Source of the DNA: Psammoneis japonica
Taxonomy: Eukaryota
NCBI GenBank assembly: GCA_008632985.1
Contig: QPGO01000272.1
Coordinates: forward strand, 1 to 64,000
DNA: 64,000 nt
Direction: 5' to 3'
A program made the position numbers and the translations under genes. Of the stretch, positions 1-44,265 are shown one piece after another. The notes below the pieces were generated by a model that was not told where the DNA came from, did no database searches, and worked only from the letters and a program-made list of their open reading frames with translations. Within the stretch, counting starts at the first letter, position 1, and every line of letters starts with the position of its first letter.

Positions 1-110
1 CCCCCCCCCCATGACAGGAACAATCGCATCGTCCAACTGCCCTGTTCAAACAAGAAGCGCATTTCCCTGCGACCGTCCCAGAAGGTTGCCCCCCACGCGC
101 AACAGGAACA

Positions 111-386
111 TGACAGAAATTGAAGGCAAATGGCAAGAATTCAAACAACAACTCCTTACTGCTGTCTAAATGGCAGATGAGTCTCCGCTCAGAGACCGTC
201 ACAGGAGCCGAAAGACGTGTAAGTCGGCACAATCGGGCTACTGTCATTATTCTTGTGAGCCTTGTGGCTCGAAAGCAAACTACATCGCGCGCGAACGCGC
301 GGAACTAAAGCACACAAAACTGTGCGCGGTAAACTAAACAGCGCGCGACACTTCGCGCGCATCCAAATCCTGTTCAAATCCTGTCA
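111..386 (-). repeat. 3' LTR of the copia element
   Basis: Direct repeat of 6943-7218 with TG...CA termini. Confidence 0.95.
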
Positions 387-3300
387 CTCCCCAGTTTGCT
401 TGAGGAGCCACAGAAACAGATTCGACTTCGGATGGAATGAAGTTCCAGAACATGAGGGGGCGGAGAAGGTCCCAGATTTGGGAGCAACCCCAATGCTTGC
501 TGAGAATGTCAGCAGGGTTGCGGGAGCCTTCGATGAAGTGGAGCTCAAGGCAACCAGAGGCAATTGCCTCACGCACACGGTGGAACGACAGTGCGGTGTG
601 TCGCTTGTGTAACTTGGAGTGCGGGATGGTGGCACTGTCTACAACCGACTTGTTGTCACCGAACATGCAACCAACATTGCGGATCGGGACGCCAAGGTGG
701 CGCAGGGTGATGCGCAGGTCAACAATCTGCTCAACACAATTCCTTGCGGCAACAAATTCAGACCCGCAGGTTGCAGTCTCCACGGTGGCTTGTTTCTTGG
801 AGAACCAATCAGCCGGGAATTTGTTGAGGAAGTGGAGCATTCCCATGACAGAGCGTCCGGTGAGCATGCAATGGCACAAGTTTGCATCGACGCAGTGGGT
901 GGCAGTGACGAACTTGCCAAGGGGCGGTGGAGCGTCCTTCGGGATCATCTCTTCTGCTTCACCATGCACGGAATGCATCCATTCACAGGCCGGAGCAGGG
1001 AGATCCGAATGGTCGGGCTCTTCCGTGCGAACGCGGAGAGCACCGTGTCGCATCTTGGAGAGGTGCCCACAGACGCGTTTGGCACGATCCAAGTGGCCTT
1101 GACGGGGCGCAGCTCGGAAGCTAGAGAGTGACATGACGGCCGTGGTGATGTCAATTCGACCAAGGGACACTGCCCATTGGAGTGAACCAACAAGAGACTG
1201 GAACTTGTGAATGCCATCGGGTCCCAGCAGTTCGGAAGTGTCCAGTTCGGGGTGGTCACCCTTCTCCAGAGGTGACAGGGCGTTGGTGGCAGGTTTCTCC
1301 CCAAACAGTCGGGCGCAGCTGTCGACCATGCGCTCCATGCACTTGCGCGGAGACAGGCACAAGGTTCCGTCGGGGTCCCGGGAAAAGTCGCAACCCAGAT
1401 GGAACTCAATGGGTCCCGTGCCCTTGAGCTTGAACTTGTGCTTCTCCGTGAGAGTGTCAACGAAAGGTTGAGGGTCCTTCATGGCAATGGCGAGGTCATC
1501 CACATAAACGGCAATGCATTCACAGTGGTCGCCGTTCCTGCGCATCCAAATGTCGGGTTCGGCGCGGCAGGGGAAGAAGCCTTCAGCTCGCAGGCAGTCG
1601 GCGAAGCGTTCGTGCCAGCGGAGACCGGAGCTGCGCAGTCCATGCAGTGCCTTGTGGATGACAAGGATGTGTCCTTCGAGTTTGCCAAATTCGGGTCCAG
1701 CTGCAATGTAAAGCTTCTCCTTGGTGGTGGCCTCAAGGCAGGCATTGCCAATGTCGGTGGCCCATGTCTCCAGCTCGTTGAGTTCGGCCAGGAAAATCAT
1801 CAGCCGAAGGCCACGAAGGGAGACTGCTCCGGAGTGGACACTGTCGATGGGTGCGTCCGTGAGGTGCCCGTCGGCTGCGAGTCGTGCCTTGTGGCAACCG
1901 TCGTGTTTCACGTCGCACACCAGGTGCACTCGGATCTTCTTGTGTCCCGCAGGAGGAGTGGAAGACTTGAAGGGCCCACAGTCATGGAAGACTTCGTATT
2001 CGTCGAGTTGGTCCATCTCGAGATTAGTTGCGTCTCCCCACTTGCGGTTGCCGTTGCGTTCGTCCAGTGACATGGCGTGTTTGTAGTTCCGGGGAACTTC
2101 GCATCCGCACTTGCAGCGAGGTGCAGTGCGGAAGGAGCGAAGCTTGGCTTGGTTGGCCATGCGAAATAGTTTCTTTTGGCGCCTCGCGACAGTGCGGAAC
2201 CGCTTCCAGCCATCCGTGTCGAGGAGTCCGTTCTCTCGTGCATAGATGGCACAGGTGACGGGGTCGTCCTTGGCGATGATGGCAAGAGGCTCGGACGTGA
2301 TCTCCCCACTTTCCCGTTCAAGCATGATGTTGTAGCTTGAGCCTTTCCAGGTTGGGTCGTGAGGCTTCAGAGGTCCTTCGTGTGACACGATGCGTCGAAA
2401 TTTCCAAACAGTGGTGTCTTCGTCTTCTTGCTCAATGTGATTCATGATGTCATTGCAGGCAAGGACTTCCTCGTGTTCGTCATTGTTGACAGAGCAGACG
2501 AACTCAGTGAGCTCGGGATTGCCGTTCACTTTCCATTCGTGGTCTTCGACGGCCTTGACGATGCAAGCTCTGTGGCGTTGTCCGTCCTCTTGTGGCTGCA
2601 TGAGGAAGGTACGTCCAATGATGTCTTGCGGATCGAAAACTGGCATCTTGGGTGTCCTGATCTCCCCATCAGGAGAATCGACGGGGTTGTCGTCATGGCG
2701 AGATTTGATGATGGGTTCAGGTGGCTCCCCATCAGGAGGATCAAGACGCAGGTTGCGAACAGCAGGATCGGGGGTGGCGGAGCAAACGTTGGACCGGCAG
2801 AGGATCTTTTGAGTCTCGTCAGATAGGATCTTGAAGGTCATCTGGTGGCCGACGTGCTCAGCAATGCCAACGAAGCGTCCGCGCAACTCACGGGATTCGG
2901 ACGGCCAATCGGAGTCATCGAGGTGGAAGCACACTGGTTCCCACCAGTGAAAGCGAAGCAATGGGCTGATGTCCGGGGTGGATCCAGTGAGAGTCTCGAG
3001 GGGCGTGCGCCAGTGGAGACGTGGGGACGCTGTGTGGTTGAGTGTGAAGCACACGTGCATGAGCGCCAGCAGCCATGTGTGGGCGGGCGAACCAAAACGG
3101 TCCATGACAGTGTTCGCCATGCGCTTCACGGTCTGGCAGCGACGCTCGGCAAAGTTTTGGTGTTGCTGGTGAGGCTCACTTTGCCAGCTGGAGATGAAGA
3201 GGGCGCGCAGGATCCCGAGCACTTTGTTGCTGATCTCAACTTGAGCACGGTCGCCAATGAGTTTGGATGGGGCACCACGTTCACGGATCTGATCCTCGAG

Positions 3301-6003
3301 TGTGTTGACAAACTCTTTGTCCGTCTTAGTGCCGCAGACGTCAGTGACGGTAGACTCGGTGCCAACAAACAGTTGGGCGCTGGTGCAGCCAGAGTCGACG
3401 GCCGGGGTGTCGGCACAAACGGTGTCAGTGGCGACAGGCTCGTTGCGGCGGTGCACATCAAGGGCGGGGTTGGGTGATTTGCAGGCCTTGCGAAGGTGTG
3501 TGCCGGCGGGCATGCGGGCGTGCTGCGTGGTGCAGTCAAAAGTACGACGGACCGCATCGGCAGGCAGGAAGCCAAAGCAAGGCCAAAGAGACTCGAAGGG
3601 GGGGTCCTTGGGCTGTACAGTGCGCTCCGGAGGTGGAACGTCATCGCCCTTGGGGTCAATCGCATGCATGTGACACTCGTAGAACACGTCGTCGTTCGGA
3701 ATGAGGTGATCATCGAGGGCGGACGCGTGATCGGCAGACAAGGAAGCGGACAAGATGGTCTCGTTGACAACGACACGGTGACGGCAGTTGCCGCATTCGT
3801 CAAACAGGTTGGCAGTGGGATCGTCCTGCAGGTCAGAGATCGCGTCGCACCACTGGTCGTCGTCAGTGACAGAGTGATCGAGGACGGAAGGGTCCCATGT
3901 GTCATCACCGGTGAGGATGACATGGGGCAGGGTGTCCCATTCGGCGTCAGTGTAAGGTCGCATGGCAACATGAGGCAGGCCAGCCTTGATGTCAATGGGG
4001 ATGACATGGCCATCAGGAGTGGCGGTGCGTTGCAAGCCGTTGGGCACCTTGGCAGAGCGATCGTTGACATCCTGTTTGCACCATTCGAGCTGGCCACAGG
4101 AATGGATGGTCTTGCCCTTTCCCGTGCATGCGCACTGATGGAGGATGGCGATGACGGGACCACGCTGGGTCTCAATGACGGCACCAGTGGTGACAATGGG
4201 GATGTCCACCAATTGATGATCGTCAATGCCCTGAACGTCGACTTGGCGAGAGGTGCGTGCGATGACGCGGACGTCGTCGCCAGCAATGCCGCCGTTGGCC
4301 CCACGATCGACTAGAGCGCCAGTGCGTGTGGAGCGATGAGCAGAGGCAGAGCAAATGACATTGTGGTTGTTAACGCGGCGGCAAGTGCGGCCGTTAAGTT
4401 CTGTGTCATCTGCAGAAGCTGGCGGGGTAGAGGAAGCAGCGGATGGCCCCGGTCGACTGGCATTGGGGGCTTGGTTAGGAGACAACAGACGTTGCAGATC
4501 ACCGGGTGGCAGTGGCTTGCGCTTGGTGAGGTGCGCCAGGACAGGATTGTCCGAAATGGCGTCCACATGTGCAGCGGAGTCACCACAGTCAGCAGGAGTC
4601 GTGTTGGACAAGTTGACATCACCGTCACTCCCAAGGTGTTGGTCGTGAAGGTTGGCCGTAACAGACTCATGGCAGTTGCTGGCTCGCGGGTTGCGGGGAG
4701 GCGGACGAGAGTGCTCAAGGATGATCGCCTTGGAGGAATCGGGCAACGAATCCCAGAGCCGTTGGTGGTCGGGAGGGAGACGTCTCCATTGGACACCGGT
4801 GAGGCTGGGACCGCGGGTGCAGGCAGCATTGGCCTGAAGGACGTCAACGTCGCTGTCAATGTCGTAGAACACATCGTCGGACGGTTCCTCGGAGCAGACG
4901 TCATGTGCGTGTGTGGCGCGTCGGGGAGCTCGAGGTGTCGTCTTGGGTTGAAACGTGCTGTCGCACTGAGCTGCCGCGGAGAGGAGCAAGCCACAGCATT
5001 GATCGCATGTGAGGCTCTTGCCACTCTGCGTGCGATGCTGATCAGCTTGGTTCTTGACAGCACGGAGTTCCTCGACAGGGTGCACGGCATTCTCGAGCAT
5101 GACGCGCTTCTGTCCTTCAGAGAAGTGGTCACTGGCCGGGATGAGTGCCTCGTGCTTGCGCAACTGATCTTGCCAATGAAGGATGAACCCGTGGGTTGGA
5201 CCTTTCCAAGTGCCATCACCAAGACGCGCGGTGGTCAGGTGCGTGAGCAGGGTGGAGGACTCGACAGATGCGCGGGTGGAGGCAAGCGCGCACTCAGACA
5301 AGGAGCGGCAGACGGTCTGTGCATCAGAAGACCCCACATTTTCGCGAATGAGAGCCTTGCCCTTGTCGGTGAGAAGGATGCGTTCGAAGATGGCGAACAT
5401 GTGCTTTTGCTGTTCAGCAAAGAGCAGTTTGTCTTCGGGGCTGGTCGGTTTGTACGACGAGTCTAGAGTGCACTTGACGTCTTGGGCACGGGCTTGTGCC
5501 ACAAGTGAGGTGTGCCAAGTGCGCCACTGCTTGTCGGATTTGAGAGCCGTGAAAGCGGTGGGACCATGCTTGATGCCTCGCTTGAAGTCCCGCACCGGGT
5601 CGCGTGCCTTGGTCGGGTTGGTGACATGTGGAGGTGCAAGGGGTGAGCTGCCGATGGACACAGAAGACATGCAGTCGGGGCTGAGGCGGCAGGCAAGGAA
5701 CTCGTCATGCGTGAACAAAGAGGAGTCATTGGCAACGTCAAGACCTTTGTGTGCTTTGACAATGTACAGGCTAACTAGTGCTGCCAACATGTTCTTATAA
5801 CCACGGGGCAAAGGGATTGCATTGGTGCCGTTGTCGCACTCAAGCGAGTCGATTTGGGACGGTGTGAACGTGAACAGTTCCTGATGCGAGTCCGTGCCGT
5901 CTTGGGCCAAAGCCAAATGAAGAGGACTCCCAGCACCTTGGGCAAGCACGGTTCCAACAACGTGCTCGAAACCATCGGTTTGTTGCTGACGAGTGAGAAC
6001 CAT
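334..6003 (-). CDS. Copia gag-pol polyprotein (gag-PR-IN-RT-RNase H); open frame, probably inactivated by missense changes
   Basis: Protease LVDRGANGG; integrase ATDTV / GDRAQVE / QHQNFAER; RT KARLAADG, ALHGLRSSG, YVDD; RNase H VDAN, GSEF, FGDN, NPADILSK. First ATG is at 6003. The frame runs into the 3' LTR. Confidence 0.92.
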   Translation of the reverse strand: MVLTRQQQTDGFEHVVGTVLAQGAGSPLHLALAQDGTDSHQELFTFTPSQIDSLECDNGTNAIPLPRGYKNMLAALVSLYIVKAHKGLDVANDSSLFTHDEFLACRLSPDCMSSVSIGSSPLAPPHVTNPTKARDPVRDFKRGIKHGPTAFTALKSDKQWRTWHTSLVAQARAQDVKCTLDSSYKPTSPEDKLLFAEQQKHMFAIFERILLTDKGKALIRENVGSSDAQTVCRSLSECALASTRASVESSTLLTHLTTARLGDGTWKGPTHGFILHWQDQLRKHEALIPASDHFSEGQKRVMLENAVHPVEELRAVKNQADQHRTQSGKSLTCDQCCGLLLSAAAQCDSTFQPKTTPRAPRRATHAHDVCSEEPSDDVFYDIDSDVDVLQANAACTRGPSLTGVQWRRLPPDHQRLWDSLPDSSKAIILEHSRPPPRNPRASNCHESVTANLHDQHLGSDGDVNLSNTTPADCGDSAAHVDAISDNPVLAHLTKRKPLPPGDLQRLLSPNQAPNASRPGPSAASSTPPASADDTELNGRTCRRVNNHNVICSASAHRSTRTGALVDRGANGGIAGDDVRVIARTSRQVDVQGIDDHQLVDIPIVTTGAVIETQRGPVIAILHQCACTGKGKTIHSCGQLEWCKQDVNDRSAKVPNGLQRTATPDGHVIPIDIKAGLPHVAMRPYTDAEWDTLPHVILTGDDTWDPSVLDHSVTDDDQWCDAISDLQDDPTANLFDECGNCRHRVVVNETILSASLSADHASALDDHLIPNDDVFYECHMHAIDPKGDDVPPPERTVQPKDPPFESLWPCFGFLPADAVRRTFDCTTQHARMPAGTHLRKACKSPNPALDVHRRNEPVATDTVCADTPAVDSGCTSAQLFVGTESTVTDVCGTKTDKEFVNTLEDQIRERGAPSKLIGDRAQVEISNKVLGILRALFISSWQSEPHQQHQNFAERRCQTVKRMANTVMDRFGSPAHTWLLALMHVCFTLNHTASPRLHWRTPLETLTGSTPDISPLLRFHWWEPVCFHLDDSDWPSESRELRGRFVGIAEHVGHQMTFKILSDETQKILCRSNVCSATPDPAVRNLRLDPPDGEPPEPIIKSRHDDNPVDSPDGEIRTPKMPVFDPQDIIGRTFLMQPQEDGQRHRACIVKAVEDHEWKVNGNPELTEFVCSVNNDEHEEVLACNDIMNHIEQEDEDTTVWKFRRIVSHEGPLKPHDPTWKGSSYNIMLERESGEITSEPLAIIAKDDPVTCAIYARENGLLDTDGWKRFRTVARRQKKLFRMANQAKLRSFRTAPRCKCGCEVPRNYKHAMSLDERNGNRKWGDATNLEMDQLDEYEVFHDCGPFKSSTPPAGHKKIRVHLVCDVKHDGCHKARLAADGHLTDAPIDSVHSGAVSLRGLRLMIFLAELNELETWATDIGNACLEATTKEKLYIAAGPEFGKLEGHILVIHKALHGLRSSGLRWHERFADCLRAEGFFPCRAEPDIWMRRNGDHCECIAVYVDDLAIAMKDPQPFVDTLTEKHKFKLKGTGPIEFHLGCDFSRDPDGTLCLSPRKCMERMVDSCARLFGEKPATNALSPLEKGDHPELDTSELLGPDGIHKFQSLVGSLQWAVSLGRIDITTAVMSLSSFRAAPRQGHLDRAKRVCGHLSKMRHGALRVRTEEPDHSDLPAPACEWMHSVHGEAEEMIPKDAPPPLGKFVTATHCVDANLCHCMLTGRSVMGMLHFLNKFPADWFSKKQATVETATCGSEFVAARNCVEQIVDLRITLRHLGVPIRNVGCMFGDNKSVVDSATIPHSKLHKRHTALSFHRVREAIASGCLELHFIEGSRNPADILSKHWGCSQIWDLLRPLMFWNFIPSEVESVSVAPQANWGVTGFEQDLDAREVSRAV

Positions 6004-6931
6004 GGCAGACAAAAGTGGTGTCAGGACAATCAATTCTGGTTGGGAAGAGAAGGCAGACTCGAAACTTGGGTGAGAATAGACTTGACTTGAAATGGACTTG
6101 ACTTGAAATCTTGAACTATCTTAAAATCAGAAGTCGCCGGGCTTTGTCACCCCGTTCGTTGTCAAGTGCTAAACTTCCTGTCCGGTCCGCAGAGTTGTGC
6201 CGGCACGTCCGAACCCGCAGCCAGTGGCGCTTTGGGTTGCTTACGAGCGGAGTAGCGGGTTGTAAACCCCTGCAGGTAAGCTGACTAGAGGTGGACAAGA
6301 CCCCCGAACCGTTCTCATTTTATGTCGGTTGGATTTCCCGATCAGGCTGGCCAGTTGACGCAGGCGCCAGGCGCTGTGGACGAACGAACAAACGCGGGAA
6401 AGCACCCTCGCCCCAACACAGGCTGCAATCATGGCTGCTTGCTCTCACAGTCGTCCTCGTGGACCTAGTAGAACTGTAGAGCACCAGTAGTCCGGGGTAG
6501 ATCAGGTACAATGGACTCGGTGTGCTTGCAGAGTGGCAGCAAAACCGCAGTCCGAAGAGTGGGTACAGGTTCTTGGCCGTGAAGATATGTATATATATGT
6601 GTGTCTTCAGCGACGAAGATCCTTGAATATGTAGGGTTCTTGACCGTTAACCGATGAATAGGTATATCAAGGGATGAGGATCAAGGATAGACTTGGATAT
6701 GACCGTTGAATGTATGTCTTCAGCGATCAAAGGTAGTATAATCAATCCAGATATCCAGCGGTAAGGAGACTTGACGGTGACGTTAACTTCCTGCCGATGC
6801 CCTGGTATTGAATGCGCGTAGACTTGCCGATGTATGTAGAATATATACGGAGGTCCACGTAGAATTGAAATGGCGTCGTTGGTAAATCAACGACGACGAT
6901 GGCGGTTGCTCAATGGGTTGACAATGAGCAA

Positions 6932-6942
6932 GACTGTTAATC
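6932..6942 (-). promoter_or_regulatory. Putative primer-binding site complementary to a tRNA-Asn(GUU) anticodon arm
   Basis: Minus-strand GATTAACAGTC directly abuts the 5' LTR. Its complement GACTGTTAATC has the form of a GUU anticodon stem-loop. Confidence 0.55.
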
Positions 6943-7218
6943 TGACAGAAATTGAAGGCAAATGGCAAGAATTCAAACAATGACTCCTTACTGCTGTCTA
7001 AATAGCAGATGAGTCTCCGCTCAGAGACCGTCACAGGAGCCGAAAGACGTGCAAGTCGGTGTGATCGGGCTGCTGTTGTTGTTCTTGTGAGCCTTGTGGC
7101 TCGAAAGCAAACTACATCGCAGGCGAACGCGTGGAACTAAAGCACACAAAACTGTGCGCGGTAAACTAAACAGCGCGCGATGCTTCGCGCGCATCCAAAT
7201 CCTGTTCAAATCCTGTCA
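6943..7218 (-). repeat. 5' LTR of the copia element
   Basis: Direct repeat of 111-386, followed by TSD GAACA. Confidence 0.95.
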
Positions 7219-8495
7219 GAACAATTCGCATCGTCCACACCTTCTGCCACTGGCATGCACGGTCGTAATGCCAGTTCGACTCTTTGAACAGGGTGAAGGG
7301 CTCCTTCATCGGCCCACCTGCCATCCTCGTCATTGATGAGACAGGGATTCAGGAATGCGTTCTGGGCCAAATGCCTTGCGTGCTGTGGCGAGAAAGTCTT
7401 CTGAAGAGGAAGATGCGAGATGCTTGCTTACAATCTCTTTTGCTTTTGAATTGCGTTGCTCAATGTCATTGGCACAGCAGTGGCATGCCTCTGCTTGGAC
7501 AGGGTTGTTCACATTTGGGTGTGCCAGGAGGTCTTGGATTGACAACAACATCTCAGAAATTGAGAAATCGGTCTTCCATCGTGGGTTTGGTTTCTCTGTT
7601 GGAAATCACAGTGCCAACGCACACCATTCCAGAGCAGAAAACATTGAGGTGGTGAAACCCTCCGGAAACTTGAATGTTGGGTGCTCCTCATTTGTGGAAG
7701 ACCAAACCATGACCAAAGGAAACAACCCACCTTCCCAAGGCATGTTGGCAGGACCTTGAATTCCAAACAAAAGAGAGGGATGTGGCATCCCGCAAGTCAC
7801 AAGGATTTGGTCCGCGATGACACCGCAAGTCACAAATTGGCTGAAATCCATGGGGGTCACAAACACAAAAATCAAACAATGCATCTGGTTTGTGTCTCAT
7901 CCACCGCTGACAGAATTGTCAGCAATGCAAGTCAGCCAAACGCCGCTCAGAGATTGCGAGGATTCTCTGCTCACTTGCCTCCAACTTTTTCTCTTGCTCC
8001 CGTTCTTGGATTCTTGCATCCATCATGAGCTCCATGTGCTTTGTCATGTCACCAGCAATGTGCTTTGACATGAGTTTGTGGGGACAGCGGTGCTTGTGTC
8101 CCCCTCCACTCGTCTTTGCAGTGTGCTGCCTCCAATTGCTCATCTTTCCCGTCCAGTCACAACCCGCTTCTGCTGCTGCTGCATCATCGGGGTTTTGAAG
8201 AGTTGCAGATGAGTCATTGCTCTTGTTCGCTGACCCACATTTCACAGTCAACTTTGGCATGTGTGCATGGGGCTTCACACAAGAGCAAAGTTGTTGCGCA
8301 CAGCTTCGCAACAGGTGGGACATTCTTCCTTTTCCTCTGAGCACTGTTTCAAACAAAGACAACAGAACAAATGACCACACTTTGTCAGGACTGGCTCTTC
8401 CAAAACATCATGGCATGTGGCACAGATCCATTCGTCATCTGGTTTTGAGAAGAGTGCAACAGGAAAGCCCGTGGTGGATGGCGGTGCTGGCAGTG
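7219..8495 (-). pseudogene. RING (C3HC4) + TRAF-like Zn finger + UBC9-like E2 domain gene, frameshifted and interrupted by the copia element (3' end probably continues at 1-110)
   Basis: Manual minus-strand translation gives EWICATCHDVLEEPVLTKCGHLFCCLCLKQCSEEKEECPTC (~8290-8432), KLTVKC...GCDWTGKMSNWRQH, GIQGPANMPWEGGLFPL...FKFPEGFHHLNVFCSGMVCV and LLSIQDLLAHPNVNNPVQAEAC. Confidence 0.75.
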
Positions 8496-10619
8496 TTCAG
8501 TGCGACAAATCTTTGATCAATCATGCAGCACACAATGTGGCAACGGCTCCATTTTTCAAAAATCCTGTTCCTGTGCTAATCTGCACAAATTGGACATGTG
8601 TAGAATGCACAGCAAAATTTGCAGCAATCGATTTGAATTCACTCCGACACACACAAATGTCGTGGGCAATGATGCTGTGACGTCGCACATGACAAACAAC
8701 AACAACAGCCAAGTGGGGGGTTCTGGTGCACCAAGATGACAATCATTCTTTGCAGCTGAAGAGCTGGCTTTGCAAGACATGAACGACTTGCTGCCATGAC
8801 CAGAAATTGAAAATGGTGCCACAAGGCCGTGCAGCACTGCATGTGGAGTTGAATGACATGCCTCCTGTGATTGCAGCTGATGGGGGTGTGGATGGCAGCA
8901 GCAGAGAGCATCCCCAGTGCAAAAGGTGCAGTCATCTGTGTCTGGGCCAGACAGGCCAGGCAGAGGGGCTTTTTGCAGATGAGCAATTTTTGCCATGGAC
9001 ATGGGCGATTCTTCAGACTGTGCAAGAACGCTGCAGAGAGTGTGTCTTGGCTGAGCTTTGTGGTTGATGCACACAAGCAGAGATTGCAACCAACCCAGCC
9101 ATTTGTGCCATTAAAGACTGGCCCAAGAAGAAACAGACTCTGTCTTTGTGCCTCATGTGAAGTCAACAGCCGCCAGCGGTGGTCTCCAGCTTTTTCTTTT
9201 TCTCTTGCTCTTGCTTGCTGCTGCGCCACACTCTTTCTGAGGCAATCACCCAACCCCAAAAGTCACAGCAGCCTCTGCAGTTTGGATGTGTCCCATCTCA
9301 AGAAACAAGAGCAAAGCCAGCAAATCAGAATGGCTGGAAAAAGAAGGCACAGTGGCAGCTTTGCACCTTGTCAGTTCCCAAAACATGGGCTCCCCCCATT
9401 GCTCTGATGATGGGGTTGTTGGGTGAGGTGTGTCTGTTTCTGGTGCTGTTGTCTCACAAAAGCAGCAGCGGCGGGGCCAAGCATTGCAAAATGTGCTCCC
9501 TCCTCTTTCTTCAAAGTTCTCCCAAGCTCTTTGCTTGTTGTTGGTTCAATCACAAACAACACCCAGCTCAAGATGTGACATGCAATTTCCTTCTTCTTTT
9601 CCTTTCCCCACCCAACATTTCAATCTGAGGAGAGCAAGTGATGAGCCATCTCAATGGCAGCTCAACATGAGACAAACTGGTGCTTGTTTGCCAGGCAGTG
9701 CAGACCCAGCAGGAAAATCATCCAAAGAATTTGCCACATGAGAGCTCCCAGTGCTCGCTCTGAAGAGCTGGGCTTTGACTTGAAAACATCCTTGGTGTGC
9801 TCCCTCCCAGTGTCATGAGAAAGCAGCTGCCGCTGGCACAAAATGCACGCTAATGCACAGATTCCCTTCAGAGAGCTTCTGAGCAAATTTCGCATGGCAC
9901 AGCAACTCATTTCACAAGACCGGTCGGGCGGCAGAAAGAATCATCAGTGAGTCGTGGTCGATCCCGTTTCGCCAATCACGAGTCACATTGTCCGGGTTAT
10001 TTTGAGTCGTACCCAACCAATGAGGAGCATTTCAAATATCAGACCTTGTAGGTTCTTATAATGATTCCTCAACGGCAGGTCCGATCTGATCAGTGGCACG
10101 CCTCTTCCTAAATATATCGAGAAAGGACATTTGATGAACTAATTAATATCTTAACAATTATTAAATCTATATATTATATAATTTTAATATAAATATAAAT
10201 TTTTGGGTCTATAGATTTTGGCTTTCAGTGTCTGTTGTGTTCATCTCAACCTTCAATCTTGAATAATTATGAATAAAAGTCATACCAATAAATTTCCAAA
10301 ATTTGAATGTCACACCGCCAGCGAAAGGGAGGGGTGTCAAGGGTCACTCCGGAAAGGGATCGTATCTACGACTCAACTCAGTATGTTTTTACGCCGGACA
10401 TTGTAGCATCACGAGACACATACTAATCTTTCCCGTTCATCAGAAACAGTTCGCACATTTTGTACCAGTTCCTACGCGATCGCTACACAAAGCAAACGCG
10501 GGAAGAGCAATCTTTGCACAAAAACACATTCTCACTCACTGATTGATTCGCATCGTGCAGCCCCGTTAACCTCTCATTGCCAGCAGTCGTGGACCAGCAC
10601 ATAAAAAAACACTTGAGCA

Positions 10620-24445: not shown

Positions 24446-26349
24446 CGCCGCAACTGTAGTAACCCTCACTTCTCACTTGCTCTCTGGTATTGTATGAAAA
24501 TGACAGCAGCTAGTTGTCGTGCCGGTTGTGGCTGCCGCGGCGAGATTCAAGATTTTGCTGAAAGCGGAGTAACGATAGGAGTCTGCCCGTTGGCAAGGCA
24601 TGTCTCAAGCGCCACGTAGAGTTTGTATTGGGAACTACGTGAGTGTTCTGCAAAATGCAAACGGCTTTTTATGAACGTATGCATTACTTCTATTGTTCAT
24701 TTTTGAAATTAGACACAAAATAATCATATACCACGTTGAATACAATAAATAAGTTTGAATCGTGCGTGCGTCATCATACGATTTTGGCGCGCTCACAAAT
24801 TCATTTTACTGTAACACAGAATCGCAGATGCCCCGCCACCGCCTCGGCTTGGCTACAACCCCGATGACATGACACAGTGCACAGCTGCCGATTGGCCACA
24901 ACAATTCATGTGGTGCGCCGCTCAGGTGGCAGCTGGAAAACAGGGAACAAATGTCTGCAGCTCCAGCTCCATCCAATTTGTTCCCCAACACTGTGCAAAC
25001 AGACCACCTGCTGGCTGCAGATGCATCGGAGGCACAAGAGGAGCCAGCCAGAAACAAGAAAATGGAATTGAAGCTGCAACTCATGAGCTGAAGTCAGGCG
25101 ATGAGCAGAGAGCATGCATCTCAAGTGGGGGAGCATGCTGCAAATGCCAAAAACTGCAATGGTTGGCAGTGTCAGAAAAACAATCAACCAGAAAGCTGGC
25201 TGCCATCATCCAAATTGAACACAATGAAATGGCAGATGAAACACACAGAATGGCAAACATGCAACAAAATTGAAATTTTGAAAAGCAACAAAAACCAGCA
25301 GAGGAGGTGGGGCATGGCCGCAGAGCGGGGTCAAGAGCTCTGCATTGGCGATCCTCCAAAAGAGTGGAGTTCCTGAGGTGGGCCAAGAAGAAGGCCGTTG
25401 ACTTCCATCACAAGAGCCATCAGATGGACTGTGCACTGAAGCTCCAACACATGAAGGGAATGAGCGGGCCAATGTGAGAGTGCCTTCTCATCCCTGACAG
25501 GATGAAGGTGGGCTGACAAACTGTTGAGGTGACTTCACACATGTCGTCCTCTGTCTCCTTGGAGGTGACAAGCTGAACATCTCCACCTGCTGGTCCACAG
25601 ATGGAAAGCGGGGTGGTGGTTTCATCCCCACACCACAAACACAAATGAGCCGCTTGATGTTGCAATGCGCGGGCTTGATCAAGTCAAGACCACCACACTG
25701 GAGGTTCAAAGTGAAGAGTTTCTCCTCTCCACTGTCTCTGTTCTTCTGTGTGAGCCAGCACAACCACATCTTCTCATGGAAGAGACAGGAGCCAACAAAA
25801 TTTTGGCACCAGCAAGGCATTGGCAGTTTGGCCAGTCTTGATTTAGATGCCATCAAGACACCATGCACAAGCACCACCCTTGGAATCAGCAGCCAGACAA
25901 GCCAGGTGATTTTTTTTGTGCTAAAAAATCAGTTTGACACAGCAAAACTTTGTTTGCACACAAAATGTGTTGCCAGTTGTTCTCTTTTCTGACGATTTTT
26001 TGCTCCATTGGGATGTGTGTCACAAACTTCCTTGGCAGACTCAATGCTGATTGTGCGTCAGTCCACCCCTCACTGAGATTTCTTTGCAGGCAGAAAACCT
26101 GCCAAGCAGCATCGTGGAAAGACACACTCAGGTGACACCCAAGTGACGGCAACAATTTTGTCAAATGTCATCTGTTGTGTTGTGATTCATTCATCGCAAT
26201 GAAAAACATGGACAGCACAATGACAACAACATTGCAGCACTCACACGAGTCTTGTCAGTGTTGCAAAACATTCAAATTTGAACAAATCTGCGCTTTTGGT
26301 GGTGAAAAACCGTTCGTGAGTCAGAGACCACGCAAAAATTGTGCAATTC

Positions 26350-26685
26350 ATGCACAAGCTCCGCAGTGCAAGAATTCATTTGATGGATGTGTTTGTCTTC
26401 AACATCAAACAAACAGCCAAGTTTGTGGTGCAATTGTGCCTCATGCCTCTCAACGTTTTTGCAAGTGCGCCTGCCCCACGCAATTCTCAGGACATTGTAG
26501 AATTGTGCTGCAACAAAAAATGTCAAAAGTTGTTGGACGGATTGCTCAACAAGTGTGCCACAAAATGATGCAAAATGTTGCAAAAATCACGCAGAAATCT
26601 GCGTGCGCAACACACGACGCAATTCAAAAAACTGTCGATGTCACAGCTCAGCAGTGCGAGGTCCCACCTGGACCTGGAACGCATC
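26350..26685 (+). mobile_element. Terminal fragment of an element related to the 36-37 kb MITE, abutting the LRR pseudogene
   Basis: GAGGTCCCACCTGGACCTGGAACGCATC resembles the MITE end GAGCTCCCACCTGGGGCTGGAACGCGTC; left end not found. Confidence 0.5.
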
Positions 26686-27570
26686 GGGCCCTGAAGGTGC
26701 AAAGTTGTTCTTTGCAGCATTGGGCGCAGCACACACAAGCTGAGCATGTCCACTTTGGTGACAACCCAACCACAAATGAAGAAGCAGAGTGCATTGGAAA
26801 TGTGCTGCTGCAGAACACCATGGTCAAATGTCTCCATTTGCAATGTTGCTCCACCCAAGATGAGGGAGCCAAATTTTTGGCACAGAAGCTTGAAAACAAC
26901 ACATCCATTGAAAGAATTTATCTGCAGGCAAATGGTGCTGGGGTGAAGGTGCAAAAAAGCAATTGGGGAGATGTTTGCACAAAACAACAAACTTGCCAAC
27001 ATTTGGCTCTTGTCCAAAACTCTTTTGACAAAGTTGTTGAGGCCACTCTGGCAAAAGGCACAAAGCAGAATCTGGCTGTTCACACCCTTGCTTCTTGTGG
27101 AAAAATGTGGATCATGAGCTGACAGCTGAAATCAAAGAGTGCCAAAATGTTTTGCCAGTGGTGCGTGATTGGTTGGTGCCCAGTGGCATTTGGGCAGATG
27201 TGTTGGGGCAAGCTTGTGACAACCAAAACCCAATGTTCCACATTGTCAAAGAGAAATTGGAACTTTTCAAAGGTTGACATCAGCCCCTTTGGTGGAAACA
27301 GAATTGCTTTGTTTCTTTTTTCCAGCTCACATCCCATCCCATCCCCATGAGTTCTGAAACAGACTCTGGGCTGTGCTTTCAAGACTTTTCTGTGATGTCA
27401 GAATCAAATTTGTGCACGCACCCTGCCCACACAGCTTGGTTGCTCCCATCAATTCCTGGCTCTGCCATGTGAAGTGAAGTTGGTGTGCTCATGCATGAGA
27501 ACAACAGAACACTGAAAGATTGAGGGGACAGCTTGTTGAATGCTGGCTGCATGTCCAGTCTAAAATGACT
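26686..27570 (+). pseudogene. Degenerate duplicate of the 3' half and 3' flank of the LRR gene
   Basis: Colinear with 16872-17700 (GIWADVLGQACDNQNPMFHIVKEKLELFK); many TA->CA/TG and CG->TG/CA changes. Confidence 0.9.
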
Positions 27571-29449
27571 GTGCACATGCTGCCACCTGGAATGAGCAAC
27601 AAAGTGGTTTGCAGGTTTTTGGAGGATTGAGGTTGCTGCTCAGTTTTGTTGCTGGTGGTGAGACACAAATTGCTGCTTTGATTGTGCCAAAGGCAACAAT
27701 CTCCCACATGGTTTTGTTGGTCAGGGCCATTGCAGCATCTCCCATGTCTTGACACAAGGGTGAGGACTTGGAAGAAATGCATGTCAAATGTGCAAGAAAG
27801 CTGCAAAACAGTGGCAATGTTTTGCTTTGTGATGGAGCTGTTGTTGAATTGTGACAACTCTGTGGGAGTTGAGCTGTCAAAGAGTGGCCGGCTTGGACAA
27901 ATGTGAGCGCTTGCATTGAGGTTGTGGCAAAAAGGAACAGGTCAGAACTGACAGAATGGAAAGAGGAACACCTGACAAAGCGAGGAGTTGAAAATGTGCC
28001 TGGAGCAGTTGGAGCACTGTGGAATCCACAGGCAACATGCTCTCCAGTCAGCAGTGCCCAGCTTCGATGCCCTCTCATGCTCTCGGTTTTGCAAGCCCTG
28101 AAAGTTGCCAGGAAGCCAAATCTCTGCTCAAACTGTCACTTTCCATTGGATGGCTTCAGCATGCCGCCAGCAAACTTCTTGTCATCATCTGGCTGCAATT
28201 CCCACTCCTTTTGTCCCTTGTCTGCTTTGCAGCAGGGGTGCTCCAAGATGAGTCCGTTGCTGGCTGCTGGCTGCACAGAGAAACAATCCTCTGCATTGAA
28301 ATGCAGCCAGCTCATCCTGCTCCTTGTCTTCAGCCAAAAACTCACCCTGTGCTCATGAAAAATGATGTTCCAGCTGACGAAAGTGCCCAGCCAGTCTTTG
28401 GTTTTAACTCCGCCAAAGGCAAGGCCGTGTGTCGCTGGTCTTGAGTGACGATGAGCAAGAGCCAAGCTTTCTCCCCACACCATCACGTTCGCCATCATGT
28501 CTGCCATTTTGTTCAAAACACAGTCAATGAGTTTTCACTTGGTTGCTTTGTTGTTGTTTGGATCTGTGTCAACACACAGTCAGAGGAGCACCCCGGCTGG
28601 CTCTTTTGCCCCCCCCCCCTCCTGTGCCATTGACAACGGCGCGGCTGTGTGTGTCTCGTCTTTTTGACATTGCGCTTCAGAGGTTGAGCTGCTGGGTTCT
28701 CTGTGTGGCTGGCTTTGTCTGCACTGTCAACAGCAAACCTTGCAACAGAGCCAGGCCCAGCAGCGTGGGAGAGAGGAGCTGCCGGACGAGAGGGTGCCGC
28801 ATCGCTTGTTGTGAGGAGAGAAAAGGCTGAGCTGGCTTGAAGAACCCTTTTTAGATGACACTTTGGAAAAGTCAAGTGCAAATCCATCTTGAAAAGCAAA
28901 GCTGCATTCTTTCATTGCAAAGAAGCTGCCACGTGTGCCGGGATTGATGCTTTTCAGAGCATGTGGCCCTCTCCCTGCTGAGCTCCTCTCCACAGCAGCG
29001 CTCAAAAAAGCTGACTTTGTTGGCAAGGCAAAAGCTCTTGGACATGAAAGCGCAAAAAAAAGCACATTATCCTGTGAAAAGAAACCATCTGAGCAAAGCA
29101 AAAGAGCATGGACCATGGTGCGTTGATTTCGCTGGTTCGTCACGGTCGCGATTCGCGTCGTGCGTCGCACTCGGCCCTTCGGGGGTGTGCGCAAGCGCGC
29201 TCGAAAACGGTCGACGCATCGACTCACGATGGACGGACAGCGCGTGCGTGCGCGCCGACGGGACCAAAAATGAAAAATCCGCAATCCGCAAGCATGCGAA
29301 CACAGAGAGCACGGCAATGGCGGCCATGAATCAATCTGCATGGACCGTCATGTCTGTCATGCAAGTGCATGGAGAGCGAACGCAACGCCAAGCAACCAAC
29401 CAAAAGAGGTGGAAGTTAATCTAAAACTGAATGACTATCTCTCGACACC

Positions 29450-34120: not shown

Positions 34121-34499
34121 GGTGGCAAGAAGAGTTCTTCACTTGCTTGGATGCTTTGTGAACAATGAGCACTCTGTTGTTGTGTCGTTTGCGGCTGTGC
34201 GGCCGCGGGATTTTGCTGGGCAAGTGCGCGGAGTGTGCAAGTCTTCTGCGTGAGAGACCAACGTGCGCACACGCTCGGAAACCAGCAACAGTTGTTTTTG
34301 AGGTTCCAAATGACTGCATGCTTCATTTTGGGTGACAAAGAGTGAATCATTTGTGGCAATGAACATGAGGAATGCATTTGAATCACATGCGCACGTCACC
34401 AAATTGTGTGTGCCGGCACAAAAACATTGCGGTTCAAACTCCATTCTTGTTTGCAGCTGGCTCTAGCCTGGCTGGAGCAGAGGCCCTCTCTAGAGTCAA

Positions 34500-35950: not shown

Positions 35951-36061
35951 GAGAAGCAAGCCAACTTGGTGGAGTCTTGGCACCAGGTGGTGGCTCAAGA
36001 GTGCACGTCATTGTGCAAAGCTGCTGCTTGTGAGGCGCCAACCAAGAGCAGCAGCAGTGGT

Positions 36062-36458
36062 GACGCGCTCCAGACGCAGGTGGGAATCCGTGTGACATTG
36101 GGCCCGCAGAATTCTGCGTGCGAGCTCCGCAGCAAAATTGTGCAGCAATTAGAGTGTCAATGTTCGCCAACAGAAAATGAGGCAATTTTGCGAACGCACA
36201 AACTCGCACATGATTGAAGTGCATCATTTTTTACTTGGCCAGTTGCATTCTTCAGACATTGAAGAATGCAACTGGCGCACTGCTGTTTCCACAAATTCGT
36301 CATGTAAAACGTCTGGGGCTTCGCAAAACAGCGAGTCTGGACAATTTTTTTTTAAATGTTACACGTAGAAATGTGCGTGCAAAACATGCGACGGATGATA
36401 AAAATTGTTTGTGTCACACGTCAGTGCTGCGAGCTCCCACCTGGGGCTGGAACGCGTC
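36062..36458 (+). mobile_element. ~397-bp MITE, TpA-mutated copy
   Basis: TIRs GACGCG(C/T)TCCAG...CTGGAACGCGTC; 4-bp TSD TGGT (36058-36061, 36459-36462). Confidence 0.88.
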
Positions 36459-36817: not shown

Positions 36818-37213
36818 GACGCGTTCCAGCCCCAGGTGGGAGCTCGTAGTACTGACGTGTGACAACAATAATTTTTATCATCCGTCGTATGTTTCGTACG
36901 TAGATTTCTACGTGTGATATTTAAAAAAAATTGTCCAGACTCGCTGTTTTGCGAAGCCCCAGACGTTTTATATAACAAGTTTATAGAAACAATAATGCGC
37001 CAGTTACATTCTTCAATGTCTGAAGAATGTAACTGGCTAAGTAAAAAATGATGTACTTCAATCATGTGCGAGTTTGTGCGTTCGCAAAATTGCCTCATTT
37101 TCTGTTGGCGATCATTGACATTTTAATTACCGTATAATTTTACTACGGAGCTCGCACGTAGAAGTCTACGGGCCCAATGTCACACGGATTCCCACCTACG
37201 TCTGGAACGCGTC
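36818..37213 (-). mobile_element. Same MITE family, opposite orientation, largely unmutated copy
   Basis: Reverse complement of 36062-36458; TIRs GACGCGTTCCAG...CTGGAACGCGTC; 4-bp TSD GACG (36814-36817, 37214-37217). Confidence 0.9.
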
Positions 37214-40900: not shown

Positions 40901-41164
40901 TCATTGCGCCACCAATGCAGTGTTGCTTGAACTGTTCTGTCAATTTTTGATTGGTCTGTGTCATCCCGGACAGGTCGGTCCATCTCATCGCAACGGATGT
41001 CAACAATGACAGCGATCCGGAGCATGAGGTCACAGATGCAGAGCCAGAAGAGACTGGGATGAGCATTGGAGATGCGATCCCAGCTGCAGATGCTGCACTC
41101 ACCATGTCTGTGACGGAACCACACCCGAGCCCATGCTGGTGCACTGTCACGCCACAGCCACCAG

Positions 41165-44264: not shown

Positions 44265-44265
44265 G

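Follow-up and report, generated by a model that had tools for sequence, protein, structure and literature searches.

Our analysis of the window, the whole 64-kb stretch of DNA presented above, points to a chromosomal, domain-targeted hypermutation that changes TpA to TpG or CpA on both strands in near-saturated, bounded blocks, and the differences between the two LTRs of one retrotransposon are very probably a local read-out of it. The direction of the change, its specificity for the dinucleotide and for the +1 base, its symmetry, its arrangement in blocks and its timing after integration are all observed in the comparisons reported here. An ADAT2/TadA-like DNA adenine deaminase would be the likeliest agent of this process, which may serve as a genome defence.

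The LTR pair and its carrier element

The pair frames an element on the minus strand, made up as follows.

106..110, no strand: left copy of the target-site duplication GAACA, the identical 5 bases beside both LTRs
111..386, minus strand: LTR (3' LTR of the minus-strand element), 276 nt, 9 TA left
334..6033, minus strand: open frame P0001, 1899 codons, a copia-type gag-integrase-RT polyprotein, functionally dead
6034..6942, minus strand: 5' untranslated part of the element, TA about 0.6-0.9 of expectation, with mutated flanks on both sides
6943..7218, minus strand: LTR (5' LTR of the element), 276 nt, 7 TA left
7219..7223, no strand: right copy of the target-site duplication GAACA

The LTRs are direct repeats of 94% identity with TG...CA ends, and because the 5-bp target duplications are identical both belong to one insertion; the pair and the GAACA duplication together are a single LTR-element insertion. 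A match of P0001 to the Pfam domain RVT_2 (E 2.7e-21) makes the element copia-type, while the order of integrase before RT was judged by eye from the translation and not from a domain match. TG..CA LTRs, a 5-bp duplication and RVT_2 in a single polyprotein, the marks of Ty1/copia elements, are all present, and a search with the polyprotein returned 1192 homologues at E <= 0.001, the best of them 71% identical.

Observed over expected TA is 0.05-0.24 in the P0001 frame, and G+C is 57% in the element versus 49% in the rest of the window. The frame stays open despite the loss of most of its Tyr codons because a process acting at TpA makes no stop codons and removes TAA and TAG. The copia family is highly repeated, its summed contig depth (which is not a copy number) being 70,000-185,000 over the element and about 60-150 over the unique flanks, and its majority contigs differ by only about 2% from the copy in the window. 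Run X2 does not cover the element and no RNA data set was listed for 5001-15000, two results to which we attach no weight. Part of the TA loss in P0001 may predate the insertion, having been inherited from an already mutated source copy.

Differences between the LTRs

A gap-free alignment of the LTRs has 17 mismatches in 276 positions, of which 16 sit in alternations among TA, TG, CA and CG and the remaining one is a transversion. The preliminary description had counted about a dozen sites, all but one of them such alternatives, and the example stretch that it quoted matches the alignment exactly. Five sites have CA opposite TG, three TA opposite TG, and one each TA opposite CA, CG opposite CA and CG opposite TG; at all five of the CA/TG sites it is the left LTR that carries CA and the right that carries TG. 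If TA was ancestral, the TpA-type changes that set each LTR apart from the other would number 6 in the left (5 CA, 1 TG) and 8 in the right (7 TG, 1 CA), with each LTR changed on both strands. This pattern is not chance. When 17 random substitutions, 80% of them transitions, were placed in each of 20,000 simulations, the number of positions in such alternations averaged 7.0, and not one of the 20,000 reached 16 or gave five CA/TG sites.

TpA-type differences account for 14 of the 17 positions and other differences for 3, and LTR divergence drops from 6.2% to 1.1% when the TpA-type positions are left out. LTR-divergence dating is inflated about 5.7-fold here (17 versus 3 differing positions), which supports the earlier warning that it would overestimate the age of the insertion.

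TA-free blocks in the window

TA-free blocks with sharp bounds number seven, the copia element among them, and together occupy more than half of the 64 kb. They contain 0-2 TA per 500 bp, and their edges are sharper than 500 bp; TA stands at 0.00-0.1 of expectation and CA/TG at 1.4-2.0 within them, as against a TA of 0.4-1.0 in normal blocks. The other blocks, and the features within and between them on which the comparisons below draw, are listed here.

7430..9850, no strand: TA-free, CpG-poor block, 0-2 TA per 500 bp, CpG 0.21-0.44 of expectation, unique-sequence depth
17732..20165, no strand: TA-free, CpG-poor block; its repeat 17745-18489 is 86% like 63280-64000
24855..29416, no strand: TA-free, CpG-poor block, with the decayed paralogue 26686-27572 of the LRR gene 16871-17702
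33914..36400, no strand: TA-free block whose edge extends into inverted-repeat arm 1 (36062-36458)
36818..37213, no strand: inverted-repeat arm 2, unmutated, within an island of spared DNA (about 36400-37250) flanked on both sides by TA-free blocks
37250..53400, no strand: 16-kb TA-free block that includes P0122, a 1431-codon frame at 48436-52731, RecQ-like helicase
57400..58730, no strand: transition zone of gene-family copy C; paralogues A (20866-24600) and B (29314-33400) served to polarise it
58725..64000, no strand: TA-free block that continues to the last letter of the window; CpG is normal over 59000-60500 and reduced from 61000 onwards
62712..63195, reverse orientation, within block 58725-64000: third, more decayed LTR and the start of a related copia element

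The affected sequences include the copia element, the second, decayed copia-like LTR and start, the RecQ-like frame and paralogues of host genes at block edges. Foreign DNA is established as the target for the copia element only, the 62712-63195 fragment and the RecQ-like frame being leads. The homologue search with P0122 found a single relative (P0243), and the RecQ-like clusters in the protein atlas are no more than a lead for this frame, whose origin is uncertain. Most of the block frames scanned against Pfam gave no family match, with nothing below the cut-offs.

The loss of TA reaches beyond at least one block edge. In copy C it rises over about 1.5 kb towards the edge, where the TA sites kept fall from 15/29 to 4/11 and then 4/17, while further to the left they number 12/13, 18/20 and 10/12. 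Repetition alone is probably not the trigger, because the duplicates 29351-30103 and 55263-56019, 97% alike over about 750 bp, are almost untouched (11 differences, with one site of TA opposite TG). We also observed that the spared stretches 6034-6942 and about 36400-37250, both lying between mutated DNA, are not predicted by a simple model in which a silenced domain is affected as a whole.

Polarised tests of the ancestral state

Four independent polarised tests, one on conserved Tyr columns and three on paralogues or repeats of the window, in which TA to TG or CA is almost the sole change, show TA rather than CG as the ancestral dinucleotide. At the protein level, we considered the 55 columns in which Tyr is present in at least 60% of 59 aligned full-length homologues. 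P0001 has Cys at 25 of these columns, His at 15, Tyr at 8, Phe at 6 and Trp at 1, versus 0-3 Cys plus His and 44-49 Tyr in each of the homologues, so that the replacement of Tyr by Cys or His is absent as a signature among these 59 relatives (0-3 of 55 columns). When the threshold is raised to at least 80% Tyr, 37 columns are left, and in these the counts for P0001 are 18 Cys and 11 His. Its Tyr content is 0.63%, against a lowest value of 2.86% among the 120 homologues listed. When P0122 was compared with P0243, none of 15 Tyr was kept (Cys 8, His 4, Phe 2, Lys 1), and Ile was replaced by Met 7 times and by Thr 4 times.

Comparisons at the level of DNA have the same direction. Gene-family copy C has TA at 64, CA at 23, TG at 19 and other letters at 12 of 118 sites that are TA in the reference, while the control copies keep TA at 48/60 sites (B) and 54/69 sites (A), with TG or CA at 5/60 and 7/69; in a first three-copy alignment, the reverse change occurred at 1/44 sites for CA to TA and at 0/42 for TG to TA. 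At the 30 TA sites of inverted-repeat arm 2, arm 1 has TG at 15, CA at 9 and TA at 6, amounting to 24 of 30 changed, with a single reverse change. The LRR paralogue has TG at 10, CA at 7, TA at 1 and other letters at 3 of 21 sites that are TA in the gene, with no reverse change. The read table, with 34 rows in the element, records TA in other copies at 7 single-change sites where the window copy has CA or TG (46-99% of depth), CA/TG swaps at 7 further dinucleotides and CG at 3 sites. The third LTR-like copy (reverse complement of 62712-63195) was considered as an outgroup and set aside, since its own mutations leave it unable to polarise the LTR sites. The preference of the preliminary description for TA over CG as the ancestor finds support in the Tyr codons, in the polarisation by paralogues and in the other family copies that have TA.

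Sequence context and strand behaviour

The strand that is changed is set by the base after the A, with TAC and TAT favoured over TAG and TAA. Sorted by the base 3' of the changed A in the sets other than Tyr, the strand-sites gave 31/44 for C, 15/34 for T, 8/27 for G and 4/35 for A, and in head-to-head contests between 3' neighbours C beat A by 10:0, G by 9:1 and T by 5:2. The TA dinucleotides that survive in TA-free blocks (123 in 38.6 kb) lie in a YTAR context in 44% of cases versus 19% of 950 in normal blocks. At the +2 position, no preference for TACG, as found in the tRNA-Arg anticodon loop, was seen among the strand-sites (TACG 11/15, TACA 9/11, TACC 5/5, TACT 6/13).

The idea that mutation runs processively along one strand, which the preliminary description had put forward, finds no support. 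Three runs tests gave P values of 0.98, 0.22 and 0.88, with no clustering, and neighbouring events sorted by distance were concordant in 44 cases and discordant in 51. CA and TG outcomes are interleaved, the pattern that the description itself had named as speaking against its proposal, and strand-coordinated runs are not supported. Since the 3' base picks the strand, independent copies will often end alike, and no processive run is needed to bring this about. TG and CA per kb are symmetric, the standard deviation of z being 1.14 across the 36 windows of TA-free DNA and 1.41 across the 28 of normal DNA. All that speaks for the strand idea is a weak orientation bias of the CA/TG sites at the level of sequence pairs, for which the +1 context rule does not account: 29/37 share the commoner orientation (P 0.01, or 0.048 when the LTR pair is left out). 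What remains of the earlier interpretation is TA ancestry, chromosomal change and inflated dating, without the strand runs.

Proposed process and alternative explanations

In the process that we propose, TpA would be changed to TpG or CpA (A:T to G:C at TpA only) on integrated DNA, with the two strands treated alike. It would run to near saturation within sharply bounded blocks of transposon-like or otherwise silenced sequence and leak 1-1.5 kb into adjoining sequence on at least one side. The 3' base would select the strand, pyrimidine over purine (TAC and TAT over TAG and TAA), no stop codon would be created while TAA and TAG would be removed, and the loss of TpA would precede CpG decay in time. 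As for the chemistry, the sequence context suggests, tentatively and with somewhat less than even confidence, that adenine in DNA is deaminated to hypoxanthine by an ADAT2/TadA-like enzyme that may be recruited to silenced DNA.

The same phenomenon might have another chemistry, in which the attack is on the thymine of TpA (e.g., through its hydroxylation to 5-hydroxymethyluracil and subsequent misrepair) or repair patches are filled by an error-prone polymerase. We regard this as unlikely, while noting that TpA is self-complementary, so that the sequence cannot tell attack on A from attack on T, and that the +1 rule read on the complement becomes a purine before T. Thymine in dinoflagellate DNA is preferentially replaced at TpA, and polymerase eta makes A-to-G errors at WA motifs. 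The WA signature of polymerase eta should change AA as well, yet AA is unchanged at 43 of 44 sites, and this candidate was rejected. The hierarchy of TAY over TAR, moreover, resembles that of TadA-derived DNA editors, and we know of no route by which a modified thymine would lead to a clean T-to-C transition.

It is rather improbable that the LTR differences reached this copy from other, differently mutated members of the abundant family through gene conversion or recombination, although the depth of that family relative to the unique flanks, and the alternative states that other copies have at the same dinucleotides, would allow for it. Unequal recombination between elements is excluded by the identical 5-bp target duplications, and the donors of any converted tract would still need to have been mutated on the chromosome, leaving the main conclusion in place.

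Editing before integration, whether A-to-I editing of the transcript by an ADAR-like or ADAT-type enzyme or editing of the cDNA, with the LTR differences then arising through reverse transcription, is very improbable. In its favour, editing of cDNA, as reportedly by APOBEC3G on HIV, can in principle leave two LTRs unequal. The strands are nevertheless hit about equally, with the 25 Cys in P0001 requiring A to G on the coding strand and the 15 His requiring T to C, TG and CA are symmetric per kb, and each LTR is changed on both strands. DNA outside retroelements is also affected (the gene paralogue, one arm of the inverted repeat and the block of unique depth), and in copy C the change fades across the block edge. 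The same observations uphold the earlier claim of a chromosomal, post-integration change. Known RNA editors do prefer U 5' of the edited A, as reported in the preprint on Bigelowiella natans discussed below (bioRxiv 10.64898/2026.01.13.699255).

We give equally little credence to an artefact of sequencing or assembly, in which a modified base in silenced DNA would have been misread and TA called as CA or TG. The blocks do resemble modified heterochromatin, and the runs that contain the sequence are all from one sample, probably the source of the window's assembly, with no library on record, so that read support is not independent. Contigs derived from k-mers of the reads of run X1, at a depth of about 57-60, nonetheless match 7219-10608 except at 1-2 letters in each 0.5-1.9 kb, whereas strand-dependent miscalls would leave two competing variants per site. 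The graded edge, the +1 context rule and the age structure (blocks with normal and with decayed CpG) also argue against an artefact, and the same spectrum is reported to have arisen de novo in Illumina-sequenced B. natans lines.

Least probable of all is CpG decay, in which the CA/TG sites were CG at insertion and deamination of methyl-cytosine gave TG or CA: CA opposite TG is what CpG decay classically leaves behind, and such decay is present in the window (2 of the 17 LTR differences, as CG opposite CA and CG opposite TG; CG in other copies at 1896, 2761 and 2784, where the window copy has CA; CpG at 0.1-0.5 of expectation in older TA-free blocks; 25 CpG lost from the LRR paralogue 26686-27572), but as the main cause it is refuted by the Tyr-column and paralogue tests, Cys or His having replaced Tyr (TAY) at 40/55 columns against 3/57 conserved Arg columns (Arg to Cys 2, Arg to His 1) and the polarised comparisons giving TA to TG or CA directly. 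Each LTR also retains 19-22 intact CpGs, at 1.1-1.3 of expectation, which rules out heavy CpG decay, and 5 double-hit versus 2 single-hit CpG sites would demand the decay of about 90% of CpGs.

Implications

If this result stands, TpA-targeted DNA hypermutation has been met twice independently, the second time in the window, in another organism, at saturation and on an LTR retrotransposon family. The broader reading is that TpA editing also takes place in a distant lineage, probably a diatom, in which most transposon-rich DNA has been rewritten to saturation and the preference for TAY over TAR is the fingerprint of a TadA/ADAT2-like enzyme on chromosomal DNA; we consider this plausible, at a little under even confidence. 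Were it true, such editing would be a genome defence in wide use among marine protists, a 'reverse RIP' in which elements are killed but no stop codon is made. A DNA adenine deaminase would then be expected to exist in nature, and it would be of interest to base-editing research. The details that the window adds are the pyrimidine rule at +1, a pointer to an enzyme of the TadA/ADAT2 kind, the equal treatment of the strands, the spread of about 1.5 kb into adjoining genes and the loss of TpA before CpG decay.

There would be practical consequences too. LTR insertion dates, transposon-age landscapes and counts of 'intact elements' based on open frames would be systematically wrong in such genomes, and a long open frame would not indicate an active element, since stops are never made by the process and TAA and TAG are removed by it. 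Mutated proteins that have lost Tyr and gained Cys and His would escape family searches, which may explain many of the unannotated genes in genomes of this kind.

Comparison with known systems

Our literature search for TpA hypermutation found a sole precedent, the preprint on B. natans (Mettrop et al. 2026, bioRxiv 10.64898/2026.01.13.699255). For two viral regions integrated in the genome it reports 231 de novo mutations, of which 230 were A to G or T to C, and it states that the GC-biased mutations were all on TpA and that there are 124 TpA-depleted clusters; ADAT2 is proposed as the agent. As described there, the likeness to the window is close: the change is A:T to G:C and restricted to TpA, with TpG or CpA as the product according to the strand, and it is confined to regions of the nuclear genome with TpA-poor, CpA- and TpG-rich clusters, some of them with reverse-transcriptase and transposase domains. 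The window likewise has A to G and T to C changes restricted to TpA, in discrete TpA-poor, CpA- and TpG-rich regions. B. natans is a chlorarachniophyte, whereas the window appears to come from a different organism: protein look-ups, with best hits of 57-71% identity and a diatom protein as the sole close relative with a name, show that it is not from the reference strain of that work, while an atlas search with the MFS protein returned no informative taxon. The TpA depletion reported for B. natans is far from saturation (Rho 0.45 in an NCLDV region), in contrast to the 0.00-0.1 of expectation in the window blocks. The evidence in the preprint is direct and in real time, from mutation-accumulation lines, while that from the window is comparative only. 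In the text of the preprint that was searched there are no LTR pairs serving as a post-integration clock, +1 rule, strand-run test, leakage into flanking genes or co-occurring CpG loss. For diatoms, a search of text of Maumus et al. 2009 (PMC2806351) for the terms hypermutat, RIP and deamin had no hits, and DNMT4 is described in Hoguin et al. 2023 (PMC9998398) as related to fungal RID and of unknown function.

Fungal RIP shares with the window the hypermutation of a single dinucleotide in integrated DNA, on both strands, with transposons inactivated, sharp limits and leakage into flanks. Its direction is the opposite, RIP making TpA from CpA and TpG and lowering G+C, whereas the process in the window destroys TpA and raises G+C; the polarised comparisons, with CA to TA at 1/44 sites and TG to TA at 0/42, reject RIP as its identity. 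RIP also creates stop codons, which would be impossible here, and its dependence on repetition is not seen in the window, where a block of unique depth is mutated and the 97%-identical duplicates are nearly untouched.

With APOBEC3 the window has in common a deaminase-type hypermutation of LTR elements, governed by dinucleotide context and inflating apparent divergence. APOBEC3 changes C to U in minus-strand cDNA, before integration, on one strand and within the element only, whereas the window has A:T to G:C changes on both strands, after integration and beyond the element. Cys 25 beside His 15, the symmetry of TG and CA and the differences between the LTRs of one insertion rule out cDNA editing of the APOBEC type.

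In the natural tRNA substrate of ADAT2-3 and TadA, the edited A34 is preceded by U. Among the TadA-derived editors, ABE3.1 is reported to prefer YAC, and ABE8e-YA to favour YAY over YAR (PMC12528748). The context in the window, where TA is changed and TAC and TAT are favoured over TAG and TAA, matches that of TadA and ADAT2. TadA and ADAT2-3 are tRNA enzymes, and base editors are engineered and guide-targeted; the agent in the window, in contrast, would be a putative natural enzyme.

Results

The LTR pair and the single open frame between its members make up one inserted LTR retrotransposon of the copia type, with the following parts.

106-110 and 7219-7223: flanking 5-base duplication GAACA, alike beside both LTRs
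111-386 and 6943-7218: LTR direct repeats, 276 nt each, 94% identical
334..6033, minus strand: P0001, the sole open frame between the LTRs, 1899 codons

Each LTR opens with TG and closes with CA. P0001 contains a reverse transcriptase domain of the RVT_2 family (E 2.7e-21) and has 1192 homologues at E <= 0.001, with a top identity of 71%. In the source sample this family is highly abundant; summed contig depth over the element is 70,000-185,000 against about 60-150 on the unique flanks, a depth that is not a copy number. The two LTRs differ at 17 positions with 0 gaps, and the preliminary description of these differences as alternations among TA, TG, CA and CG holds as written for 16 of the 17, the last being a transversion. 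CA faces TG at five sites, TA faces TG at three, and the pairings TA/CA, CG/CA and CG/TG occur once each. When 17 random substitutions, 80% of them transitions, were simulated 20,000 times, a mean of 7.0 positions fell within such alternations, and neither the observed 16 nor the five CA/TG sites were reproduced in any simulation (0/20,000 in each case). Fourteen of the differing positions (14 inferred changes) are TpA-type, that is, TA to TG or CA, as against two that are CpG-type, despite the presence of more CpG than TA sites.

The LTR pair by itself does not discriminate between TA and CG ancestry, and four polarising tests were therefore applied, which together uphold the earlier claim that the ancestral dinucleotide was TA. 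The first set P0001 against 59 full-length homologues, which lead, in order of id, the 87 with at least 1800 residues among 120 listed. At the 55 columns with Tyr in at least 60% of homologues, P0001 has Cys at 25, His at 15, Tyr at 8, Phe at 6 and Trp at 1, while individual homologues (n=59) have 0-3 Cys plus His and 44-49 Tyr. The 37 stricter columns (at least 80% Tyr) hold 18 Cys and 11 His in P0001, and the 57 conserved Arg columns two Cys and one His. These counts are compatible with TAY changing to TGY or CAY and incompatible with CGY ancestry. The second test used a further frame, P0122, which is unrelated to P0001 and lies in a different block, and its homologue P0243, alongside which we list the members of the third, the paralogues within the window.

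48436-52731: P0122, 1431 codons, RecQ-like helicase C-terminal half (homology lead)
20866-24600: copy A of a gene family with three paralogues in the window
29314-33400: copy B of the same family
55263-60650: copy C of the same family

P0122 has one relative (P0243, 50% identity) among 5.8 billion proteins and three Tyr left. At the 15 aligned Tyr of P0243 it has Cys at eight, His at four, Phe at two and Lys at one, with none kept, and Ile is replaced by Met seven times and by Thr four times. At 118 TA sites of the reference copies, copy C has TA at 64, CA at 23, TG at 19 and other dinucleotides at 12; as control targets, copies B and A keep TA at 48/60 and 54/69. In the first three-copy alignment reverse changes are rare (TA replaces CA at 1 site in 44 and TG at 0 in 42), and 43 of 44 AA sites are unchanged. 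An inverted repeat behaves similarly: where arm 36818-37213 has TA, arm 36062-36458 has TG at 15 sites, CA at nine and TA at six, with one reverse change. At the 21 TA sites of the LRR gene 16871-17702, its decayed paralogue at 26686-27572 has TG at 10, CA at seven, TA at one and other dinucleotides at three, with 0 reverse changes.

The fourth test drew on contigs from four read runs of one sample, compared over 1-20000, through the 40 variant rows with the best support among 936, a choice biased towards sites at which the window's copy is the odd one out; 34 of these 40 lie inside the copia element. Among them, other family copies carry TA for the window's CA or TG at 679, 1340, 1703, 1877, 2065, 3255 and 3459, with TA supported by 46-99% of depth, and at seven dinucleotides they carry the other product, CA for the window's TG or the converse. 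The same 40 rows show CG in other family copies at 1896, 2761 and 2784, so that ordinary CpG decay is also present, yet it is the minor process: 19-22 CpG per LTR survive (1.1-1.3 of expectation), and five double-hit against two single-hit LTR sites would need roughly 90% CpG loss.

Segmentation at 500-bp resolution, comparing observed with expected TA, divides the window into normal blocks (TA at 0.4-1.0 of expectation) and seven nearly TA-free ones (0-2 TA per 500 bp, 0.00-0.1 of expectation) that sum to about 38.6 kb.

about 500-6033: TA-free block 1
7430-9850: TA-free block 2
17732-20165: TA-free block 3
24855-29416: TA-free block 4
33914-36400: TA-free block 5
37250-53400: TA-free block 6
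58725-64000: TA-free block 7

The recognisable genes of the normal blocks are an MFS transporter, an LRR protein, DUF6824 and a SUMO-like protein. CpG is also low (0.1-0.5) in most TA-free blocks, though not in the copia frame or at 59000-60500, which suggests rapid TpA loss followed by slow CpG decay. Within the last block, 59000-60500 has normal or high CpG (1.0-1.4 of expectation) and 61000-64000 is CpG-poor (0.16-0.4), two states that may reflect age since conversion, or CpGs newly made by TA double hits. Positions 59077-60250 are an insertion that copy C has and copies A and B lack, in which a short motif around ACAAAATTTGTCG is repeated throughout in both orientations; this insertion may be a small DNA transposon and the seed of the mutated block.

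Two segments retain TA amid mutated DNA. An 850-bp island at about 36400-37250, between two TA-free blocks, has normal TA content and holds arm 2 and the centre of the inverted repeat, of which arm 1 is 80% converted; the block to its right starts abruptly at about 37250, and spreading here seems one-sided. The 5' untranslated part of the copia element, 6034-6942, keeps TA at about 0.6-0.9 of expectation (15 and 34 per 500 bp), hot TAC contexts included, between an open frame about 85% converted and an LTR with eight TpA-type changes. Its boundary lies near the frame start, and its summed read depth equals that of the rest of the element. These two spared segments argue against a uniform domain model.

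The claim that mutation was chromosomal and followed integration is supported by three observations. Block 7430-9850 has unique-sequence depth, the inverted-repeat arms are in unlike mutation states, and TA retention in copy C falls from 12/13, 18/20 and 10/12 over 55263-57400, through 15/29, 4/11 and 4/17 toward the block edge (57400-58730), to 0/4 and 1/12 within the block. Because of these, the TpA process is, on the sequence evidence, one that acts on integrated DNA. Part of the TA loss in the copia frame may have come from a source copy that had itself been mutated before. Family majority contigs are only about 2% different from the window's copy, although near-saturation together with context-set outcomes would yield a similar figure. 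A consensus artefact is ruled out by read-derived contigs (about 57-60x), which match block 7430-9850 but for 1-2 letters in every 0.5-1.9 kb, a support that is not independent since the runs are from a single sample, probably the assembly source.

The further proposal of processive hits on one strand finds no support outside the LTRs. Runs tests gave no clustering in the Cys/His order along P0001 (25 runs against 19.8 expected, P(runs <= observed) = 0.98), in the inverted-repeat arm (10 against 12.3, P 0.22) or in the LRR paralogue (11 against 9.2, P 0.88). Neighbouring events in four pooled sets were concordant 44 times and discordant 51 times, with no short-range excess of concordance (8 against 8 within 6 bp, 5 against 6 at 7-15 bp). 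The balance of TG and CA per kb is equally symmetric in TA-free and normal DNA (sd of z 1.14 in 36 TA-free windows, 1.41 in 28 normal windows). Only orientation within pairs speaks for the strand idea: at opposite-product sites in five pairs, some of them old and poorly aligned, it agrees more often than expected by chance, at 29/37 (P 0.01), at 24/32 without the LTR pair (P 0.048), and at 5/5 in the LTR pair alone (P 0.06).

Direction, TG or CA, is set by local context and not by strand runs. By the base 3' of the changed A (+1), the strand-sites changed in the non-Tyr sets were 31/44 for C, 15/34 for T, 8/27 for G and 4/35 for A, and in head-to-head contests C prevailed over A 10:0, over G 9:1 and over T 5:2, and T over A 7:2. 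Among the 123 TA that survive in TA-free blocks, 44% are YTAR, against 19% of 950 in normal blocks; ATAT accounts for 0/123 there and for 70 in normal blocks.

Other features of the window were recorded alongside. A read run from the sample used for the contigs, coded X2, behaves like RNA, with two GT..AG joints at 10717-11147, one skipping 10718-10856 and the other 10910-11146, and with high depth across 11340-13340. Together these mark an expressed gene with two short introns that includes the DUF6824 match. Gene structure looks intron-poor, as exons longer than 1 kb come after the two joints. A tandem array at 16270-16830 (three 168-bp units, 82-92% alike) lies within the LRR_6 gene 16020-17399.

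Discussion

Our findings bear directly on how such elements are dated and annotated. LTR divergence is 17/276 (6.2%) and falls to 3/276 (1.1%) once TpA-type positions are removed; as 14 of the 17 differing positions are of this type, LTR dating is inflated about 5.7-fold, the overestimate of age that had been anticipated. The 1899-codon frame is no evidence of activity, because the process makes no TAA, TAG or TGA from sense codons and erases existing TAA and TAG; 19 open frames of at least 100 codons overlap 1-7400. TpA-mutated proteins also escape family searches: P0122 falls below the Helicase_C cut-off (16 against 23.5 bits) and its homologue P0243 lies above it.

The sequence shows a process that is specific for one dinucleotide and for the +1 base, runs in one direction, treats both strands alike, is confined to regions with a gradient on one side, and acts after integration. 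As its chemistry we infer adenine deamination in DNA, in which the resulting hypoxanthine would pair with C. Thymine-directed modification may be at work instead, since TpA is self-complementary and the sequence gives no distinction between attack on A and on T. Repetition alone seems insufficient as the trigger: duplicates 97% alike are nearly untouched by TpA change, and mutation has reached a block of unique-sequence depth. An ADAT2/TadA-like enzyme is a possible agent, though we stop somewhat short of calling it probable. The natural tRNA substrate of TadA/ADAT2-like enzymes presents a U-A context, which resembles the window's hierarchy of TAY over TAR. A similar likeness is found in TadA-derived editors, where ABE3.1 prefers YAC and ABE8e-YA prefers YAY over YAR (PMC12528748).

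A process of the window's kind is described by a preprint of Mettrop et al. dated 2026-04-14 (bioRxiv 10.64898/2026.01.13.699255). The window does not seem to derive from the Bigelowiella natans reference strain of that work: its top protein matches are 57-60% (MFS transporter) and 71% (copia) identical, the sole named close relative among them comes from the diatom Odontella aurita, and gene structure looks intron-poor. A diatom is the tentative source. In the preprint, mutation-accumulation lines of B. natans show two integrated viral regions changing about 1000x as fast as the remaining genome. Of 231 mutations in these regions, 230 are A to G or T to C, and the GC-biased ones are, per the authors, all at TpA. 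The genome holds 124 TpA-poor, CpA+TpG-rich clusters, enriched in reverse-transcriptase and transposase domains, and an ADAT2-like DNA adenine deaminase is proposed. Within its available text, a term search finds no retrotransposon, diatom or CpG, and the four uses of 'motif' concern TpA, a zinc-finger and the deaminase active site, none of them the +1 base. The phenomenon in the window is real and its extent striking; its kind is published only as this 2026 B. natans preprint, and we read the window's process, from its sequence signature, as the same kind of TpA hypermutation in another organism.
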